Source: an uncultured Alphaproteobacteria bacterium
Lineage (GTDB): Bacteria; Pseudomonadota; Alphaproteobacteria; Rhizobiales; Rhodomicrobiaceae
DNA length: 64,000 nucleotides
Direction of reading: 5' to 3'
NCBI GenBank assembly: GCA_963817705.1
Contig: CAWFPF010000007.1
Span: forward strand, 7,275 to 71,274
Part shown: piece by piece, positions 33,986-58,601 of the stretch
How positions within the stretch are numbered: the stretch's first letter is position 1
Layout: the number at the start of each line of letters is the position of its first letter
Program-made: the position numbers and the translations under genes
Notes under the pieces: model-generated
What the model saw: the letters and a program-made list of their open reading frames with translations, nothing else
The model's database searches: none
What the model was told of the DNA's origin: nothing

Positions 33986-34456
33986 ATGCCGGCAAGCACG
34001 ATCTACAAGCTCCTCACGCGCACCGAATGGGAAGCGGCGCAAGCTGCGGGCGTCTATTGCGGCTCGGCGCACGATAGGCGCGACGGGTTCATCCACTTTT
34101 CCGCGGCGGGGCAGCTTGCGGAGACGGCGCGAAAGTATTTCTCTGGCGTGCCCGATTTGGTCTTGCTGGCGGTTGATGCCGCCGCTTTGACGGAAAGTCT
34201 TACCCCTCATCCCGCCCTTCTCCCAATGGGAGAAGGGACGCTTGAACATGGCACAATGCCAGCCGCAACGTCCCCTCTCCCAGAGGGAGAGGGACAGGGT
34301 GAGGGGTATCACTCTCTCCGCTGGGAACCCTCCCGAGGCGGCGATCTCTTTCCGCACCTCTACGCCAATCTGCCCATCGCGGCGGTGACGAGCGTCATCG
34401 CAATCCCGCTTGCCGCTGATGGCGTTCCCATTATCCCGAGCGAACTCGCGCCATGA
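33986..34456 (+). CDS. DUF952 family protein carrying an in-frame repeat insertion
   Basis: IYKLLTRTEW...DRRDGFIHFS...LRWEPSRGGDLFPHLY; 36 extra codons from the repeat; usual position upstream of pyrD. Confidence 0.9.
   Translation: MPASTIYKLLTRTEWEAAQAAGVYCGSAHDRRDGFIHFSAAGQLAETARKYFSGVPDLVLLAVDAAALTESLTPHPALLPMGEGTLEHGTMPAATSPLPEGEGQGEGYHSLRWEPSRGGDLFPHLYANLPIAAVTSVIAIPLAADGVPIIPSELAP
34201..34308. repeat. Palindromic repeat copy A (108 bp, in-frame in DUF952)
   Basis: Termini TACCCCTCA/TGAGGGGTA; two internal hairpins CCCTTCTCCCAATGGGAGAAGGG and CCCTCTCCCAGAGGGAGAGGG. Confidence 0.9.
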
Positions 34457-45933: not shown

Positions 45934-47376
45934 TGACGGACTCCGCTCCCATAAAGCGCGGGCCACGCGATACGGATGAAGCAGCGATGGACGAAACGGC
46001 CAACGAGGCGGCGGGCCGGTTTCAGCGCACGGGCAACGGCGGTTGGGTTCCGCGCGGCAAGACCGGCGGGTCCAACGGGTCTGGCCTTCTGCTGACCCTC
46101 TACCGGGGCGCCACCTGGGCGGCGCGCCCCGTGGCCATGCCGATTTTGCGCCGGCGCGCGGAACAAGGCAAAGAAGTGCCGGCGAGGCTTTCCGAGCGCC
46201 TTGGCATTGCGACGATCCCCCGGCCCGCCGGCCCGCTCTTCTGGTTTCACGCGGCGAGCGTCGGCGAGACGAACGCGGTGCTGCCGCTCATGCATAAGCT
46301 TAGGGAAAGCTACCCGGCGCTCAATATCCTGCTGACGACCGTCACCGTGACATCGGCCAAGATCGCCGCGGAACGGCTCCCGAACGGGGCGATTCATCAA
46401 TTCATGCCGCTCGATAGCCCGCGCTTCTGCCAGCGCTTCATCGAGCATTGGCGGCCCGATCTTGGACTTTTCACCGAGTTCTGAAATCTGGCCGAATCTC
46501 ATCGTCGAGGCGAGCAGCCGCAACGTGCCCCTGGTGCTCGTCAATGCGCGGATGTCGCAGCGATCCTGCAAGCGATGGGCCCGGCTTTCGAGCCTCAGCA
46601 GACCCGTGTTTTCGCGTTTCGATCTGGTTCTGACGCAGAATGGGCGGTTCGCCCAACGTCTCACCGGGCTTGGCGCTCCGGCAGCGCTCGTCACTGGCAA
46701 CCTGAAATACGACTCCCCCCCTCCGCCCGTGGACATGCGCGCCGCGGCGGAATTGCGGCGCAGCGCCGGGGACAGGCCCGTGTTTCTGGCCGCGAGCACG
46801 CATCCCGGCGAAGACGAGGTGGCCGCGCGCGTGCACGAATTGCTACAAGCCGCAATGCCCTCCTTGCTGACGGTCATCGTCCCGCGCCACCCCAATCGCG
46901 GCGAAGCCATCGCTTCGCTTCTCGGCGAGCGGCACCTGCCAGCCGCCCGGCGCTCGGCCCGCGAGCCAGTGACAGGTGAAACGCAGGTCTACCTTGCCGA
47001 TACGATCGGCGAGTTGGGGCTGTTCTACACACTTGCGCCGCTGTCTTTCATAGGCGGGTCGCTGGTGGTCCATGGCGGGCAAAACCCCATCGAAGCGGTG
47101 AAGCTCGGTTCCGGCGTTCTGAGCGGCCCGCATACCTTCAATTTTGCCGAGACCTATTCGGTCCTTCAGCACCACGAAGGCTTCAAACTTGTCGTAGGCC
47201 CGGACGATCTCGCCGCCGCGCTCCGGAGACTGTTCGAGAACCCCGCCGAGGCGGAGGAGATGAAACGCCGGGCGGCGGCAGCTATCGGTACGCTTTGCGG
47301 GGCGCTCGAAAAGACGCTGGAGGCGCTGAAGCCCTATCTGTCCGCCGCCTTTGGCACAGCGGTACATGCCGCTTGA
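45933..47376 (+). CDS. waaA: 3-deoxy-D-manno-octulosonic acid transferase (apparent +1 frameshift at 46476-46481)
   Basis: WFHAASVGE in frame 1; removing one T from GAGTTC restores ESEIWPN; ASTHPGE, VPRHP and GGQNPIE follow. Confidence 0.93.
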
Positions 47377-48550
47377 GCCGCCTCCATGGTGGTACGATGG
47401 CCAGATCCCACTGGCCGCCTGGGGGCTGCTTCCTATCTCGGCGGCCTATGGTGCCATCGTGCAAAGGCGGTTCCGGACCGTTTCGCCTTACCGGAGCAAG
47501 CTTCCGGTTATCTGCATCGGCAATTTCACCATGGGCGGCGCGGGCAAAACACCGGTTGCCCTAAAGCTTGCGCCGCTCTTGCTGGGCGCGGGCCGAAAGC
47601 CGGCGTTTCTTTCGCGCGGCTATGGCGGCCATGAACTTGGTCCGCATGTGGTGGACGCCGCCTTGGACGAAGCCGGCCGGGTGGGCGACGAACCGCTGCT
47701 CTTGGCGGAGGTAGCGCCAACCGTAGTCAGCCGGGACCGTCCGGCGGGTGCCCGGCTCATCGAAGCGCTCGGCGCCGATACCATCGTCATGGATGACGGT
47801 TTTCAAAATCCGTCGCTCAAGAAAGATTTCAGCCTGATCGTGGTGGACGCTGGGGCAGGCATTGGCTCGGGCCGCATCTTTCCGCTCGGCCCCTTGCGCG
47901 CGCCGCTGGGCTTCCAAGCGGGCATGGCCGATGCCATTCTGATTTTGGGCGAAGACCCGGCGGGGGAGAGCCTTCAACGGGTGAACGCCAGTTTGAGAGG
48001 AAGATACCCCTCACCCCAACCCTCTCCCGCAAGGGGAGAGGGGGCAGGGCGCGCGCGTTGTGAGGGCGTCCCTTCTCTCCCGCAAGCTAGCCTTGACGAG
48101 CTTGCCATTCCGAGATCCAGCAAGCGGATGCGGACGGGAGAAGGACAGGATGAGGGGGCCTGCTTCTGCCGCGGCCTAAACGCCTTCGAGGCCAAAATCG
48201 TGCCGCGGATCACCGATGATATGCGCGGCCGGCGGTTCCTCGCGTTTTGCGGCATCGGGCGCCCCGCCAAATTTTTTGAGACGTTGCGTCAGGCCGGCGT
48301 CGCAGCGGTCAGAACCCGGAGCTTCCCCGATCACCACGCTTATTTGGAGACGGACGCGCTTTCGCTCCTCGGCGAAGCCAACGCGCTCGGCGCCGGGCTG
48401 ATCACCACCGGAAAAGACCTCGTGCGCCTCAGACACAAGTCCGGCGCCTTGGGAGAGCTAGGCCGGTCCACGCTTGCCTTACCGGTCACGGTCGAATTCG
48501 CGGACGGCCACGAGGCTTTGCTGATTAAGGCCCTGCAAGCGCGCTTTTAA
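47366..48550 (+). CDS. lpxK: Tetraacyldisaccharide 4'-kinase with an in-frame repeat insertion
   Basis: IGNFTMGGAGKTP, SRGYGG, GDEP, MDDGFQ, AFCGIGRP and FPDHH motifs. Confidence 0.95.
   Translation: MPLEPPPWWYDGQIPLAAWGLLPISAAYGAIVQRRFRTVSPYRSKLPVICIGNFTMGGAGKTPVALKLAPLLLGAGRKPAFLSRGYGGHELGPHVVDAALDEAGRVGDEPLLLAEVAPTVVSRDRPAGARLIEALGADTIVMDDGFQNPSLKKDFSLIVVDAGAGIGSGRIFPLGPLRAPLGFQAGMADAILILGEDPAGESLQRVNASLRGRYPSPQPSPARGEGAGRARCEGVPSLPQASLDELAIPRSSKRMRTGEGQDEGACFCRGLNAFEAKIVPRITDDMRGRRFLAFCGIGRPAKFFETLRQAGVAAVRTRSFPDHHAYLETDALSLLGEANALGAGLITTGKDLVRLRHKSGALGELGRSTLALPVTVEFADGHEALLIKALQARF
48007..48157. repeat. Palindromic repeat copy B (in-frame in lpxK)
   Basis: CCCCTCACCCCAACCCTCTCCCGCAAGGGGAGAGGG...GGGAGAAGGACAGGATGAGGGG. 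Confidence 0.9.
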
Positions 48551-52839: not shown

Positions 52840-52950
52840 CGATACATCGGCGAAATCGAATGCATTAGCAGTTCGGCTAGATGGCGAAACGGATGGCAAA
52901 TGCTAAGGTCCATTTGCTGCTTTTTTCGCCAGGCGAGTTGCTCCAAAAGA

Positions 52951-54939
52951 ATGTCCGACACCCTGCCCAAAGTGCTGCTTCATAACGCGCGGGTGTTCGC
53001 GAAACGGCCTGCAATCCGGTTGAAGGATCTCGGCATTTGGCAGACCTGGACTTGGGCCGAAGCCGCAGAAGAAGTGCGGGCCTTCGCCATCGGGCTCAAC
53101 CGGCTTGGAGTCCGGCGGGGGGAGACGATTGCGATTGTGGGCGACAACAGGCCACGGCTTTACTGGGCGATGATGGCCGCGCAGAGCCTCGGCGCCATTC
53201 CGGTTCCCATGTATCAGGACTCGGTGGCGCAAGAGATGGCCTATGTGCTGGGCCACTCCGAGGCGAGGCTCGCCGTCGCTCAGAACCAGGAGCAGGTGGA
53301 CAAGCTCCTATCCATCGCCGAAGAGGCGCCGCTGTTACACCAGATCGTTTACGACGAGCCGAGGGGGTTGCAGGATTACGAGACGGGCCGTGTCCGGAGC
53401 TTCGAGAGCGTCGCCGCGGAGGGGCGCGCCGCCCTGAAACGCGAGCCGAAGCTTGCGGAGGGCTGGCTCGCGGACGTCGAGCGCGGGTCGGGCAACGATC
53501 CCGGCGTTATTCTCTATACCTCCGGCACCACCGGCCAGCCCAAGGGCGTCGTCCTCAGCCACAGCAATGTGCTCGTAACGGCACGCAACGCGAATGCGTT
53601 CGACAAGATCTCGGAGAAGGACGAAATCATCGCCTATCTGCCCATGGCTTGGGTCGGCGACCACATCTTCAGCTATGGACAAGCGCTCGCGGCCGGGTTT
53701 TGCGTGTCATGCCCCGAAAGCCCGCAGACCGTACTGGAGGACCGCCGGGAGATAGGGCCGACCTATTTTTTCGCGCCGCCCCGCGTCTACGAGAATCTCC
53801 TCACCTCCATCATGGTACGCATGGAGGATGCGGGCTCCATCAAGCGCGCCATGTTCAAAGGCTTTATGGCCGTCGCAAAACGGGCGGGCGAGCCGATCTT
53901 GAATGGCGAGCGTGTTTCCCCTTTCACGCGCGCGCTTTATGGCCTTGGCCAGGTTCTGGTTTATGGACCTGTCAAGAACCGGCTGGGGCTCACCCGCGCG
54001 CGCGTGGCCTATACGGCCGGTGAAGCCATCGGGCCGGAGATCTTCCGCTTCTACCGTTCCCTCGGCCTAAACCTGAAGCAGTTCTACGGCCAAACCGAAG
54101 CCAGCGTGTATGTGACCTTGCAGGCCGACGGCGAGATTGGCGCGGAGACCGTAGGCAGGCCCGCGCCGGGCGTTGAGGTGCGCGTGTCGCCCTCGGGCGA
54201 GGTCGAATATTGCGGACCCGGCGTTTTCCTCCGCTACTTTAAGAATGACGAGGCTACCGAAAATACCAAGACACCCGATGGCTGGGTGAAGACCGGCGAT
54301 GCAGGGATCGTCGAGCCGGATGGGTCGCTGAAGATCATCGACCGGGCCAAGGATGTGGGCCGGCTGACCGGCGGCGCGCTGCTGCCGCCGAAATATCTCG
54401 AAAACAAGCTGAAATTCTATCCAAACATCAAGGAGGCGGTGGCATTTGGCGACGGGCGCGATTTCGCGGCGGCCTTCATCAACATCGATCTGCTCTCCGT
54501 CGGCAATTGGGCCGAACGCAACAACGTCACCTATGCGAGCTATCAGGAGCTCGCCGCCCACTCGCGAGTCTACGACATGGTTCGTGCCCATGTCGATGAG
54601 GTTAACCGGAGCCTTGCGAAGGAGCCCATGCTTGCGGGGGCACAGATCCGGAGATTTCTCATCCTGCACAAGGAACTCGACGCAGACGATGGCGAGCTGA
54701 CGCGCACGCAGAAAGTCCGGCGAGGCTTCATTGCGGAGCGCTATGCGCCGCTCGTCGCCGCGCTTTATGACGGCTCGGCGGAGAAACACATTGCCACCGC
54801 CGTTACCTTCGAGGATGGCCGCAAAGGCGTGATCGAGGCAACCGTGCGCATCGCCGATATGCCGGCCTATACAGCCGAGGGGAATCCGATGCCCGCAATC
54901 GCGATGCCCTCCCAGTCTCATTTGGAGGCGGCGGAATGA
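52951..54939 (+). CDS. Long-chain fatty-acid-CoA ligase (AMP-binding)
   Basis: YTSGTTGQPKG, FYGQTE and KTGDAG motifs. Confidence 0.92.
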   Translation: MSDTLPKVLLHNARVFAKRPAIRLKDLGIWQTWTWAEAAEEVRAFAIGLNRLGVRRGETIAIVGDNRPRLYWAMMAAQSLGAIPVPMYQDSVAQEMAYVLGHSEARLAVAQNQEQVDKLLSIAEEAPLLHQIVYDEPRGLQDYETGRVRSFESVAAEGRAALKREPKLAEGWLADVERGSGNDPGVILYTSGTTGQPKGVVLSHSNVLVTARNANAFDKISEKDEIIAYLPMAWVGDHIFSYGQALAAGFCVSCPESPQTVLEDRREIGPTYFFAPPRVYENLLTSIMVRMEDAGSIKRAMFKGFMAVAKRAGEPILNGERVSPFTRALYGLGQVLVYGPVKNRLGLTRARVAYTAGEAIGPEIFRFYRSLGLNLKQFYGQTEASVYVTLQADGEIGAETVGRPAPGVEVRVSPSGEVEYCGPGVFLRYFKNDEATENTKTPDGWVKTGDAGIVEPDGSLKIIDRAKDVGRLTGGALLPPKYLENKLKFYPNIKEAVAFGDGRDFAAAFINIDLLSVGNWAERNNVTYASYQELAAHSRVYDMVRAHVDEVNRSLAKEPMLAGAQIRRFLILHKELDADDGELTRTQKVRRGFIAERYAPLVAALYDGSAEKHIATAVTFEDGRKGVIEATVRIADMPAYTAEGNPMPAIAMPSQSHLEAAE

Positions 54940-55793
54940 ACGCGCCTGAAACCGTTACGGTGGCCGGCAGCGCCCCCCTGGAAGAAGCGCCGGCGCCGCG
55001 CCGTCAGTTTTCCGAGGTTCTCCTCTCAGTCGAGAACATCACGCTGAGTTTTGGCGGCGTACGCGCGCTGAACGCCATCAGCTTCGACATCCGCAAGGGC
55101 GAAATCCGCGCCATCATCGGCCCCAACGGCGCCGGCAAAACCTCGATGCTGAATGTCATCAACGGCTTCTATCATCCGCAATCCGGGCTTATCACATTCA
55201 AGGGCAGGAAGCGCCGCCGCATGCGTCCGCACCGGGCCGCCGCGCAAGGCATCGCACGCACTTTCCAGAATGTCGCGCTGTTCAAGGGCATGAGCACGCT
55301 CGACAATCTTATGGCGGGGCGGATGCTGAAGATGCGGCGCGGCCTGTTCTGGCATGCGCTCTACTGGGGGCCGGCGCAGTGGGAGGAAATCCGCCACCGG
55401 CGCGTGGTCGAGGATATCATCGACTTCCTGCGCATCGAGCACATCCGCAAAACACCGGTCGGCAAGCTGCCCTACGGCTTGCAAAAGCGGGTGGAGCTTG
55501 GACGCGCGCTGGCCATGGAGCCCGAACTGTTGCTGCTCGACGAGCCCATGGCAGGCATGAACGTCGAGGAGAAGGAGGATATGTCCCGCTTCATCATCGA
55601 TGTGAACGAGCAATTCGGGACAACGATCGCGCTCATCGAGCATGACATGGGCGTGGTGATGGACCTGTCGGACCGCGTTGTGGTGCTGGACTACGGACGC
55701 AAGATCGCGGATGGCCCGCCGTCCGAGGTGCAAGCGAACCAGGCTGTGATCGGCGCCTATCTCGGCGTCCCCGATAGCGAGGGTGCGGCATGA
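54936..55793 (+). CDS. LIV-type ABC transporter ATPase (LivG-like)
   Basis: GPNGAGKT, LPYGLQKRVE and LLDEP motifs. Confidence 0.94.
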   Translation: MNAPETVTVAGSAPLEEAPAPRRQFSEVLLSVENITLSFGGVRALNAISFDIRKGEIRAIIGPNGAGKTSMLNVINGFYHPQSGLITFKGRKRRRMRPHRAAAQGIARTFQNVALFKGMSTLDNLMAGRMLKMRRGLFWHALYWGPAQWEEIRHRRVVEDIIDFLRIEHIRKTPVGKLPYGLQKRVELGRALAMEPELLLLDEPMAGMNVEEKEDMSRFIIDVNEQFGTTIALIEHDMGVVMDLSDRVVVLDYGRKIADGPPSEVQANQAVIGAYLGVPDSEGAA

Positions 55794-55978
55794 GAAGCGT
55801 AGCTGACGGCACTGCCAAGTTCCCCCTCACCCCAACCCTCTCCCCGAGGGGAGAGGGAGCAAAAGCCGCGACCCTCTCAAGAGAAGTGGCTGCGGCCCAC
55901 TTCCAGAGCGGAAAGGGAGATGTTGGCGTCCCTTCTCCCCTTGGGGAGAAGGACAGGATGAGGGGGTCTTGCCCATGA
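55790..55978 (+). CDS. 62-aa bridging mini-ORF encoded by repeat C
   Basis: ATGA overlaps with both the ATPase stop and the DUF559 start; protein function doubtful. Confidence 0.35.
   Translation: MRSVADGTAKFPLTPTLSPRGEGAKAATLSREVAAAHFQSGKGDVGVPSPLGEKDRMRGSCP
55822..55966. repeat. Palindromic repeat copy C
   Basis: CCCCCTCACCCCAACCCTCTCCCCGAGGGGAGAGGG...CCCTTCTCCCCTTGGGGAGAAGGACAGGATGAGGGGG. Confidence 0.93.
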
Positions 55979-56472
55979 AAGTCGCCCTGACCCCTATTGC
56001 ACGGAAGTTACGGCACGAAACCACCGATGCGGAACTCCGCCTGTGGCTTGCCTTGCGAAACCGGCAAATCAAAGGGTTCAAGTTCAAGCGGCAAGTGCCA
56101 TTCGGCCCCTACATCGCGGACCTCCTCTGCGTTGAAGCAAGGCTGATTGTCGAAGCCGACGGCGGCCAGCACGCTGTGCAAGAGGCTTCCGGCCGAACGC
56201 GAACGGCATACTTGGAGAGCCAAGGCTATCGCGTGCTGCGGTTCTGGAATAACGATGTGCTTCAGAACCTGGAGGGGGTGCTTGAAACAATTGCGGAAAC
56301 GCTGGGGAGCGAGTCTCCCCTCACCCTGACCCTCTCCCCGAGGGGGGAGGGAAAAAAAGCCGCAGCCCTCTCAAGAGAAGTAGTTGCGGCGGCCGATCCC
56401 ATCGGAGCGGCCGCTTCCTGCGTCCCTTCTCCCCTTGGGGAGAAGGACAGGATGAGGGGGTCTTCCTCATGA
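55975..56472 (+). CDS. DUF559 (Vsr-like) endonuclease; C-terminal about 50 aa read through repeat D
   Basis: ARKLR...TDAE..LW..LR...FKRQVPFGPYIAD...EADGGQH...GYRVLRFWNNDV. Confidence 0.92.
   Translation: MKVALTPIARKLRHETTDAELRLWLALRNRQIKGFKFKRQVPFGPYIADLLCVEARLIVEADGGQHAVQEASGRTRTAYLESQGYRVLRFWNNDVLQNLEGVLETIAETLGSESPLTLTLSPRGEGKKAAALSREVVAAADPIGAAASCVPSPLGEKDRMRGSSS
56317..56460. repeat. Palindromic repeat copy D
   Basis: Shares the right end GCGTCCCTTCTCCCCTTGGGGAGAAGGACAGGATGAGGGGGTCTT exactly with copy C. Confidence 0.93.
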
Positions 56473-57365
56473 CGTTCTTCGCAGAAACGGTCATCAGCGG
56501 CCTCCTGACGGGGGTGATGTACTCGCTCGTCGCGCTCGGCTTCGTGCTGATCTACAAGGCAAGCGGCGTCTTCAATTTCGCGCAAGGCGTCATGGCGCTG
56601 TTCGCGGCGCTGACGCTCACGGGTCTGATGAACGAGTATCACGTGCCGGTGTGGGGCGCGATCCCGCTCACGATTCTGGTCATGATCGCGCTCGCTTTCG
56701 TGGTCGAGTGGGCGATCCTGCGGCGCCTCGTGAACCAGGAGCCGATCGTGCTGTTCATGGCGACGCTCGGCCTCGCCTATATCCTGGAGGGGCTTGGCGA
56801 CATCGTCTGGGGGCCGGACGTCAAGGTTCTCGACCTCGGCCTGCCGGAGGGCGCGAACAACTGGCTCCTCGACAATTTCAACATCTACATCGAGCGCATC
56901 GAGATCTTAGCGGCCGCGACGGCGGCAATCCTGGTCGCGGTGCTCGCAATCTTCTTCCAGCGCACGCGCACAGGCCGCGCCCTGCGCGCGGTGGCCGACG
57001 ACCATCAGGCCGCACTCTCTGTCGGCATCTCCCTATCCGCGATCTGGGTGATCGTGTGGTCGGTCGCGGGCATTGTGGCGCTGGTGGCGGGCATCATGTG
57101 GGGTGCGAAGTCGGGCGTGCAGTTCTCGCTTTCGCTCATCGCGCTGAAGGCGCTGCCCGTGCTGATCCTCGGCGGCTTTACCAGCGTTCCCGGCGCTATC
57201 GTTGGCGGTCTCATTATCGGCGTCGGCGAGAAGCTTGCGGAAATCTACGCCGGGCCAATCATCGGCGGCGCCATCGAGAACTGGTTCGCCTATGTGCTCG
57301 CACTCATGTTCCTGCTGGTGCGGCCGCAGGGCCTCTTCGGCGAGAAGATCATCGAGCGGATTTGA
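56469..57365 (+). CDS. LIV-type ABC permease (LivH-like)
   Basis: YSLVALGFVLIYKASGVFNFAQG and RTRTGRALRAVADD motifs. Confidence 0.94.
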   Translation: MTFFAETVISGLLTGVMYSLVALGFVLIYKASGVFNFAQGVMALFAALTLTGLMNEYHVPVWGAIPLTILVMIALAFVVEWAILRRLVNQEPIVLFMATLGLAYILEGLGDIVWGPDVKVLDLGLPEGANNWLLDNFNIYIERIEILAAATAAILVAVLAIFFQRTRTGRALRAVADDHQAALSVGISLSAIWVIVWSVAGIVALVAGIMWGAKSGVQFSLSLIALKALPVLILGGFTSVPGAIVGGLIIGVGEKLAEIYAGPIIGGAIENWFAYVLALMFLLVRPQGLFGEKIIERI

Positions 57366-57384
57366 GTATGAAGAAAAGGTACGC

Positions 57385-57484
57385 CGTCATTGCGAGCGAA
57401 GCGAAGCCATCCAGGAGGGGCGATCTCAAACGGAGAGCCAGTTTCCCCGGGATCGCCAAGGCGGCTCTGCCGGCTCGCGATGGC
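57385..57484. repeat. CGTCATTGCGAGCGAAGCGAAGC-type REP-like palindrome
   Basis: Typical left arm with a degenerate right arm; covered by a 46-aa ORF at 57368-57508. Confidence 0.78.
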
Positions 57485-57510
57485 AACAAGTCCGGAGCTT
57501 GGAACTAATA

Positions 57511-58587
57511 ATGTTCTATCGCGAAGCAGGGCAGCTCAAGACAAGCTATGCGAGTGACATGGCGATCTTCCCGCTGAGGGAAGACCGCAAGCTCATACTG
57601 GTGATCCTCGCCGCCGCCTATCTGGTCGTCCCGTTCTTTCTGACCGATTTCTGGCTGAGCGCGGTTGCGATTCCGTTCCTTGCCTATGCCATGGCGGCAA
57701 TGGGGCTCAACATTCTCACGGGTTATTGCGGCCAGCTCTCGCTCGGAACAGGTGGATTTCTCGCCGCCGGGGCGTATTCCGCTTACAAGATCACCACCGC
57801 TTTCCCTGATCTGAACCTCATTTTCGTGTTCCTCGGCGCGGGGCTCTGCACTGCGGCCGTCGGGCTCGCCTTCGGCATTCCCTCGCTTCGGATCAAGGGC
57901 TTTTACCTCGCGGTCGCAACGCTCGCGGCGCAGTTCTTTATCGTCTGGCTGGTGACGCGCGTGCCCTGGTTCACGAACAACAGCGCGTCCGGGCAGATCC
58001 AAATGCCCACTCGCACCGTCTTCGGCTTTCCGGTGACAGGCGGCGCGATCTCAGGCACGGCGCAGTATCTCTTCGCGCTCACCTTCGTCACCGTGTTCGC
58101 GCTCATTGCGAAGAATCTCAGCCGTACCAATACAGGCCGGGCCTGGATGGCTATCCGCGACATGGATATCGCGGCGGAGCTGATCGGCATCCGGCCGCTT
58201 TTCGCCAAGCTGTCGGCTTTCGCGGTCTCGTCGTTTTACATCGGAATCGCGGGCGCGATGATGTTCGCCCTCTGGCTGTCGAGCGTCGAGCCGTCGTCGA
58301 GCTTCGGCATCAACCAGTCATTCCTGGTTCTGTTCATGGTCATCATCGGCGGGCTCGGCACGGTTCTCGGCTCATTTTTGGGCGCGGGCTTTCTCGTCCT
58401 GCTGCCGCTGCTCCTCAGCTACGTGCTTGTTGGATGGTTTGGGATTTTTCCAGCCGAGGCGAAGCACGCCGAAATTCTGACCATGGGCGTTTTGATCGTT
58501 TTCTTTCTCATCGCCGAGCCGCACGGCCTCGCAAAAATCTGGCAAACAACACGCGAGAAGCTGCGGCTCTGGCCATTTCCGTATTAA
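57511..58587 (+). CDS. LIV-type ABC permease (LivM-like)
   Basis: MFYREAGQ, LNILTGYCGQLSLG and GRAWMAIRD motifs. Confidence 0.94.
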   Translation: MFYREAGQLKTSYASDMAIFPLREDRKLILVILAAAYLVVPFFLTDFWLSAVAIPFLAYAMAAMGLNILTGYCGQLSLGTGGFLAAGAYSAYKITTAFPDLNLIFVFLGAGLCTAAVGLAFGIPSLRIKGFYLAVATLAAQFFIVWLVTRVPWFTNNSASGQIQMPTRTVFGFPVTGGAISGTAQYLFALTFVTVFALIAKNLSRTNTGRAWMAIRDMDIAAELIGIRPLFAKLSAFAVSSFYIGIAGAMMFALWLSSVEPSSSFGINQSFLVLFMVIIGGLGTVLGSFLGAGFLVLLPLLLSYVLVGWFGIFPAEAKHAEILTMGVLIVFFLIAEPHGLAKIWQTTREKLRLWPFPY

Positions 58588-58601
58588 CCAGGGAGGACTG
58601 C

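Follow-up and report, generated by a model that had tools for sequence, protein, structure and literature searches.

The window, a stretch of 64,000 nucleotides (nt) from an uncultured alphaproteobacterium of the Rhodomicrobiaceae (assembly GCA_963817705.1, contig CAWFPF010000007.1, positions 7,275 to 71,274), contains on its + strand a transporter operon in which palindromic repeats between the genes are spanned by small open reading frames (ORFs). The genome holding the window (4.8 Mb, 60% G+C, 7 contigs) is labelled G000, and the other G-numbers refer to genomes of the same genus. According to the ORFs and Pfam matches, the operon consists of an AMP-binding gene, an ATPase, permease 1, permease 2, a binding protein and ATPase 2, in this order, with extra DNA at three junctions: between the ATPase and permease 1, between permeases 1 and 2, and after the binding-protein gene. 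The stop of the first gene, which is acyl-CoA synthetase-like (52900–54939; PF00501, E = 9e-67), overlaps the start of the LivG-like ATP-binding cassette (ABC) ATPase (54936–55793; PF00005, PF12399) in an ATGA, and this overlap was present in 10 of 10 genomes of the genus.

The TGA of the ATPase overlaps in the same way the ATG at 55790 of a 62-aa ORF (55790–55978), which was found in the ORF listing, has no Pfam match and runs from ATGA to ATGA over a repeat, A1. The TGA of this ORF overlaps the ATG at 55975 of an ORF of the DUF559 family of Vsr-like PD-(D/E)xK nucleases (55975–56472), matched by PF04480 over residues 6–110 (E = 8e-40). Residues 113–165 of the DUF559 ORF, a tail of 53 aa, are the translation of a second repeat, A2, up to the ATGA at 56469, formed by the DUF559 TGA and the overlapping ATG of the LivH-like permease 1 (56469–57365; PF02653, E = 2e-31). 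At the next junction, a 46-aa ORF (57368–57508; ORF listing and comparison) covers a repeat of a second family, starting 2 nt past the permease 1 stop and leaving 2 nt between its own end and the ATG (57511) that opens the LivM-like permease 2 (57511–58587; PF02653, E = 2e-30). If read from a TTG at 57362, which overlaps the permease 1 stop, the ORF becomes 48 aa long. All these genes and ORFs lie on the + strand, as do the periplasmic binding protein (58602–59909; PF13458, own gene caller; start uncertain, with an open frame from 58434) and the LivF-like ABC ATPase 2 (60053–60895; PF00005). A preliminary description of the window had reported the three ATGA couplings and the 2-nt distances of the 46-aa ORF, and on re-reading of the sequence every position was exact. 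It had also described a further repeat copy of the operon, E, as unbridged, and there only a 22-aa ORF over the right arm was found, with no start near the binding-protein stop. A promoter and terminator scan of the inserts gave nothing above background, and an Rfam scan of window positions 55000–60500 gave no relevant match.

The repeats were delimited by repeat search and predicted folding, and are given without a strand. A1 (55818–55970) and A2 (56312–56466) are 82% identical and belong to one family, A. A1 is built of two arms of about 40 nt, inverted copies of one another and each palindromic in itself; the arms of the family are 85–86% complementary over 40–42 nt and therefore form terminal inverted repeats, as in a MITE (miniature inverted-repeat transposable element). 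In the predicted folds of A1 and A2 the whole element forms a single hairpin. The two hairpins of the chain had been called strong, in agreement with the predicted energies of -95.3 kcal/mol (z = -4.3) for the A1 region and -107.6 kcal/mol (z = -5.95) for the A2 region, and the predicted A2 stem base-pairs the nucleotides immediately 5' of the permease 1 AUG. The repetitive extragenic palindromic (REP)-like hairpin between the permeases, REP-B (57386–57484, GTCATTGCGAGCGAAGCGAAGC... type), is weaker, with -56.7 kcal/mol and z = -1.8, and 9 of 200 shuffles folded as well. REP-B has a low copy number, with just 7 short matches in the G000 genome; it also occupies the same junction in G002 and G007. 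Copy E (59930–60030; repeat search) is a short form of family A that has the two arms and lacks the middle. Family A occupies 180 loci in G000: 89 in co-directional spacers, 48 in convergent and 11 in divergent ones, and 32 in called genes. Two copies of the window are translated in frame inside genes, namely LpxK (47351–48550; 399 aa, where the profile, matched over its full length, has 328 positions) and a DUF952 protein (33986–34456; the domain match is split in two stretches).

The orthologous operon was compared in 10 genomes of the genus, G000 included. The ATPase/permease 1 junction is a bare ATGA overlap in G013 and G043 and carries an insert in the other 8 genomes. Of these 8 inserts, 7 are crossed, from the ATGA of the ATPase to that of permease 1, by a single ORF or by an ORF plus DUF559, and three unrelated types of insert are involved. 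G021 and G007 have a single family-A copy (in G007 with an extra hairpin nested inside), G045 and G046 a divergent repeat variant, G054 an unrelated repeat, and G000 and G002 the arrangement of repeat, DUF559 and repeat. The junction of G003, with DUF559 followed by several repeats, is not spanned.

The relay ORFs of the 7 spanned genomes are 62, 53, 76, 53, 57, 51 and 53 aa long, the 62-aa ORF of G000 corresponding to 53, 76 and 53 aa in G002, G007 and G021, respectively. The ATGA-to-ATGA distances were 185, 158, 227, 158, 170, 152 and 158 nt, every one of them 2 modulo 3. In the alignment, G021 and G007 lack 1 nt of the left arm, a loss that is compensated further downstream, so that the peptide is out of frame for about 30 nt and is then restored. 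The remaining length changes are of 12, 57 and 18 nt. The peptides change frame and the ends remain docked; the phase is conserved and not the peptide. In G054 the tail of the ATPase is remodelled and the ATGA docking is nevertheless retained. A GAGG is found by eye 7–8 nt before the left ATGA in all insert-bearing genomes (8 nt in G000) and at the uninterrupted junction of G043. Since it is common to bare and insert-bearing junctions, the mini-ORF appears to use the former initiation region of permease 1. In a wide survey of 80 named genomes the ligase/ATPase ATGA overlap was widespread, and the start sites were too noisy for further use.

Similar arrangements were found at the other junctions of the operon. 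The spacer between permeases 1 and 2 is bare, with 9–41 nt, in G013, G043 and G046, and in all 4 repeat-bearing genomes it is filled by one ORF, of 37 aa in G002 and G007, 46 aa in G000 and 58 aa, over a family-A copy, in G045. The junction after the binding-protein gene is a bare ATGA in G003, is bridged in G002, G043, G045 and G046 and is unbridged in G000, G007 and G013. Two side observations concern the permease 1/permease 2 junction. In G054 it holds a gene of 142 aa, separated by 8 nt from the stop before it and by 2 nt from the start after it, and the N-terminus of its product presumably recalls ArsC/Spx-type proteins. The 41-nt spacer of G046 resembles by eye both flanks of the G007 REP-B copy minus the element, and is a candidate for an empty site or a precise excision of REP-B.

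Two further G000 junctions with ATGA-to-ATGA bridges were compared over about 25 genomes of the genus each; the downstream genes are presumably an RND-pump-like and an FtsX-like permease gene, as named from the N-terminal sequence. At the RND-pump-like junction, the spacer was bare (-4 to +7 nt) in 11 genomes, and 10 of 14 insert-bearing genomes were bridged by ORFs of 20–75 aa. After deletion of 1, 2 or 3 nt the corresponding values were 1.3, 4.0 and 10.0. At the FtsX-like junction, 7 genomes were bare (-4 or -1 nt) and 12 of 16 insert-bearing genomes were bridged by ORFs of 12–80 aa, compared with 2.0, 3.7 and 11.7 after the same deletions. Pooled, 22 of 30 insert-bearing genomes were bridged, with 1.3–4.0 per junction in the frameshift controls. 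A single class of spacer length modulo 3 accounted for 10 of 14 and 13 of 16 cases, respectively. The bridging peptides differ widely among genomes, and the spread of the spacer lengths requires many separate indels that kept the phase.

The preliminary description had proposed a statistical comparison of the bridging of intra-operon repeats with chance, and this was made genome-wide in G000 with co-directional spacers of up to 400 nt and genes from our own gene caller. A spacer was counted as bridged if one ORF covered its repeat, starting -4 to +6 nt from the upstream stop and ending -4 to +6 nt from a start in the frame of the downstream gene. Bridging was detected in 15 of 67 repeat-bearing co-directional spacers, compared with 7.2±2.1 after permutation of the repeats among the loci (maximum 14 in 500 permutations). 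After deletion of 1 or 2 nt, 4.4 and 5.0 spacers were bridged, and after deletion of 3 nt 15.2, so that bridging was about 2–3 times commoner than in the frameshift or permutation controls. Spacers of 60–300 nt free of family A showed no excess (52 of 819 bridged, compared with 39 and 52 in controls). Bridging was commoner where the residual spacer, with the repeat subtracted, was short (10 of 27 versus 6 of 43). The comparative and genome-wide tests together thus place bridging above chance. The earlier interpretation, that mini-ORFs keep translation continuous through repeats inside operons, was supported in part, in that the mini-ORFs are non-random and their phase was kept through independent insertions and indels; with 15 of 67 spacers bridged, bridging does not extend to intra-operon repeats in general.

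The relay frames have probably been selected, locus by locus, for the hand-over of ribosomes across inserts at junctions that formerly overlapped. The cistrons would first have been joined by 4-nt ATGA overlaps, with downstream translation dependent on the ribosomes arriving from the preceding gene. Family-A repeats, the DUF559 gene with its flanking repeats and the second repeat type would have inserted at these ATGA junctions and cut the downstream gene off from the ribosome-binding site and start that it first used, which would now open a short frame reading into the insert. Alleles would have been kept only if this frame was stop-free, in phase and ended on or a few nt from the downstream start. 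The translating ribosome would then unwind a hairpin that otherwise buries the region just 5' of the downstream start, and the unwinding would expose the G-rich, Shine-Dalgarno (SD)-like 3' arm. The ribosome would terminate where a restart on the next gene is possible, the relay peptide itself being apparently throw-away. We infer accompanying translation of the mini-ORFs, reinitiation at the downstream starts and a drop in downstream expression on loss of phase. Functional micropeptides were also considered and were ruled out by the lack of a Pfam match for the relay ORF and by the changes of peptide frame between genomes.

Several results weigh against this reading. The majority of the co-directional copies, 52 of 67, are unbridged, copy E included. 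For a family-A copy drawn at random, the probability of docking at both ends is 0.22 in the place of A1 and 0.18 in that of A2. With a permissive chain criterion, which allowed any number of small ORFs, starts at -8 to +10 nt and TTG, no enrichment was obtained (37 of 70 versus 33 expected); this criterion was non-discriminating and the single-ORF criterion was therefore adopted. Depletion of stop codons in the repeats was ruled out, as family-A copies have 3.25 open frames of 6 compared with 3.44 in dinucleotide shuffles, so that a reading frame across a copy comes at little cost. The two replication junctions were picked since they are bridged in G000, so that their counts are not independent trials, and genomes of one genus are related and hence not independent either. 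In G003 the chain is broken: the DUF559 frame ends 186 nt before permease 1, and it is another frame that does reach the ATGA. This junction may be an independent insertion, a decaying chain or an assembly error in a metagenome-assembled genome (MAG). Finally, a prediction that bridged downstream starts lack an SD site failed, the anti-SD pairing there being -7.3 kcal/mol compared with a genome average of -4.35 kcal/mol. The strong complementarity arises from the G-rich 3' arm of the element located at these starts; it fits an arm exposed only during unwinding by the ribosome, and some independent initiation is also possible.

These points raise the alternative that bridging is a by-product of chance, with G+C-rich, stop-poor palindromes and a duplicated ATGA target docking accidentally and without selection. 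Open frames as frequent as in shuffles, the single-locus probabilities, the result with the lenient chain criterion and the many unbridged copies all agree with it. So does the ATGA on either side of the inserts at the ATPase/permease 1 junction, which could be explained by target-site duplication or by selection for docking. Taken alone, the G000 chain is only mildly unlikely and proves little, because the single-locus probability is about 0.2. Accidental docking is nevertheless difficult to reconcile with a phase that outlasted independent insertion events, a frameshift with its compensation and length changes of 12, 18, 27, 57 and 69 nt, with the 22 bridged genomes of 30 at the two other junctions, with the 15 bridged spacers, which exceed all 500 permutations, and with the docking kept in G054. 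We consider chance an improbable explanation of the whole pattern. Two further loci lack a bridge in G000: at one, the relatives have about 18 nt between the genes and no overlap, and the repeat occurs only in G000; the other has too few orthologues. Both are weakly consistent with context dependence of the bridging.

Bridging could alternatively be designed into the element. Family A, perhaps with DUF559 as the enzyme, would in that case target start codons in the manner of mycobacterial interspersed repetitive units (MIRUs) and carry with it a phased ORF, a stop/start (the GGATGAGGGGG end) and a ribosome-binding site. The 3' end of family A is indeed invariably G(G/A)TGAGGGGG, which contains TGA and GAGG, and the ATGA of the element itself provides the start of the downstream gene at two loci. 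The tail GTCTT-N-CATGA is common to A1 and A2, the start of the closest DUF559 subfamily lies on ...CATGAAAGT directly after an arm, and the SD-like complementarity at bridged downstream starts would equally be expected. On the other hand, the frame and orientation of the element differ among loci, and permutation of the copies among co-directional loci halved the bridging, so that the phase is fitted per locus. Moreover, of the 180 copies 59 are in convergent or divergent spacers and 32 inside genes, the ATGA on the right belongs to the host junction itself, as seen in G043, and in G054 and at other junctions the same role falls to a quite different repeat and to unique flank sequence. A built-in design is accordingly judged very unlikely. 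Because the frames and orientations vary by locus, permutation halves the bridging and most copies are unbridged, bridging is best explained as a selective filter acting locus by locus at formerly overlapping junctions and not as a property of the element.

The association of DUF559 with repeat arms is not limited to this operon. In nearly all cases in the genus, the DUF559 gene is preceded by a right arm of family A (...GGGAGAGGGACAGGGTGAGGGG), which ends about 10 nt before the start, and a left arm (CCCCTCACCC...) follows right after the domain, giving a unit of arm, DUF559 and arm with a polarity opposite to that of the short element. The DUF559 ORFs of the genus usually run 28–35 aa into the downstream arm, and a complete chain to the gene on either side exists in only 8 of about 26. 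In G003, DUF559 starts on the ATPase ATGA without an upstream repeat and is 59% identical to the G000 DUF559, compared with about 90% for the flanking genes. The second DUF559 copy of G000, outside the window (contig C1:765100–765690, - strand), is by eye one open frame that leads from a GTGA overlap with the upstream stop across a variant of the repeat, then the domain and another repeat, to an ATGA overlap with the next start. As DUF559 genes nearly always lie between a right and a left arm, family A and DUF559 might together make up a selfish system. Its mobilising or homing enzyme would be the Vsr-like nuclease, and it would be safe in operons by targeting, or by surviving at, stop/start overlaps, where it would profit from the translational coupling of the host. 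We regard this as a rather doubtful proposal; if true, Alphaproteobacteria would have a nuclease-repeat partnership of a new kind, with a lifestyle like that of MIRUs. A link of family A with REP-associated tyrosine transposases (RAYTs) was ruled out, as no Y1-transposase gene adjoins a copy: the nearest copies were 1.8, 16.6 and 37.5 kb from the three PF01797 matches in G000. These matches lie at C2:284881–285237, C4:20841–21197 and C1:2045279–2045545, and two of them have identical scores, as in an IS200/IS605-type element.

The same selective filter could act through transcription. Ribosomes covering the insert of about 150 nt would block the loading of Rho and so spare the permeases from polarity, a benefit also put forward in the preliminary description. 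The 5' arm of family A is very C-rich and G-poor (CCCCCTCACCCCAACCCTCTCCCC), and the conservation of phase fits anti-polarity as well as it fits a ribosome relay. Rho prefers unstructured RNA, and very stable hairpins are poor Rho substrates; here the C-rich arm is paired within a predicted hairpin of -95 to -108 kcal/mol. Coverage alone would further suffice for anti-polarity, with no need for the stop to lie within 4 nt of the following start, whereas docking at -4 is what is conserved. Copy E, which is about as long, has also persisted in this operon with no bridge. Protection from Rho therefore seems an unlikely main benefit. Ribosome delivery with melting of the hairpin at the downstream start would be at least as likely as anti-polarity, and it is favoured here because the conserved feature is the docking at the next start and not the coverage, and because the RNA of the insert is a very stable hairpin whose stem ends at the downstream AUG.

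Translational coupling by 4-nt overlaps is very common, and the need of the cell for it is hard to measure. Junctions of the type described here can be considered natural experiments, in which the same place is bare or holds one repeat, a nuclease gene with two repeats or an unrelated repeat, and only the phase of a throw-away ORF is kept. If the ribosome relay is correct, they would offer a read-out, from sequence only, of the junctions that depend on ribosome hand-over, and would explain how repeats with predicted hairpins of about -100 kcal/mol persist inside operons. They also call for caution in annotation, since such 'hypothetical proteins' and the C-terminal tail of DUF559 would be relay frames and not functional peptides.

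Among known systems, the REP and bacterial interspersed mosaic element (BIME) sequences of enterobacteria and pseudomonads are abundant extragenic imperfect palindromes which are often co-transcribed in operons, and the malE-malF REP is an mRNA stabiliser. The place after a highly expressed first product is the classical position of such a stabiliser, and copy E, 21 nt past the binding-protein stop, matches it. Classical REPs are thought to be untranslated RNA hairpins, whereas the copies at tight junctions here are read through, and, in contrast to REP/RAYT systems, the Y1-transposase genes of G000 do not adjoin family-A copies. In a literature search of incomplete coverage, no account was found of bridging for REP-like repeats of Alphaproteobacteria or of a link between DUF559 and repeats. 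Rickettsia palindromic elements, described in the review PMC10969869 as in-frame insertions inside genes, are the precedent for translated palindromes within genes. Family A, in frame in LpxK and the DUF952 protein, is likewise a palindromic family that tolerates translation, but at the junctions described here it is contained in a separate mini-cistron between genes and not inserted in a gene.

The nearest parallel in arrangement is with MIRUs. As outlined in a 2025 review (PMC12548453, citing Supply et al. 1997), these mobile repeats insert at start codons and contain an internal ORF coupled at -4 nt to the gene, which probably minimises the effect on expression. As with the MIRUs of that review, short dispersed repeats occupy intercistronic junctions of operons, and the role proposed for the ORF is that the insert may persist with little downstream effect. 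The ORFs of the window dock at -4/-4 (55790–55978 and 55975–56472) and at +2/+2 (57368–57508). The likeness is one of arrangement: in place of units of the MIRU type, the junctions here hold long REP/MITE-like hairpins that are strongly palindromic. Unlike in MIRUs, the ORF does not belong to the element as such, since its frame and orientation vary and part of it is flank sequence. Most family-A copies, moreover, lie outside operon junctions, and the chain includes a protein-coding gene, DUF559. The generic palindromic family, the fitting of the phase locus by locus and the protein gene within the chain are new here, and they extend the MIRU idea to generic palindromic repeats of Alphaproteobacteria.

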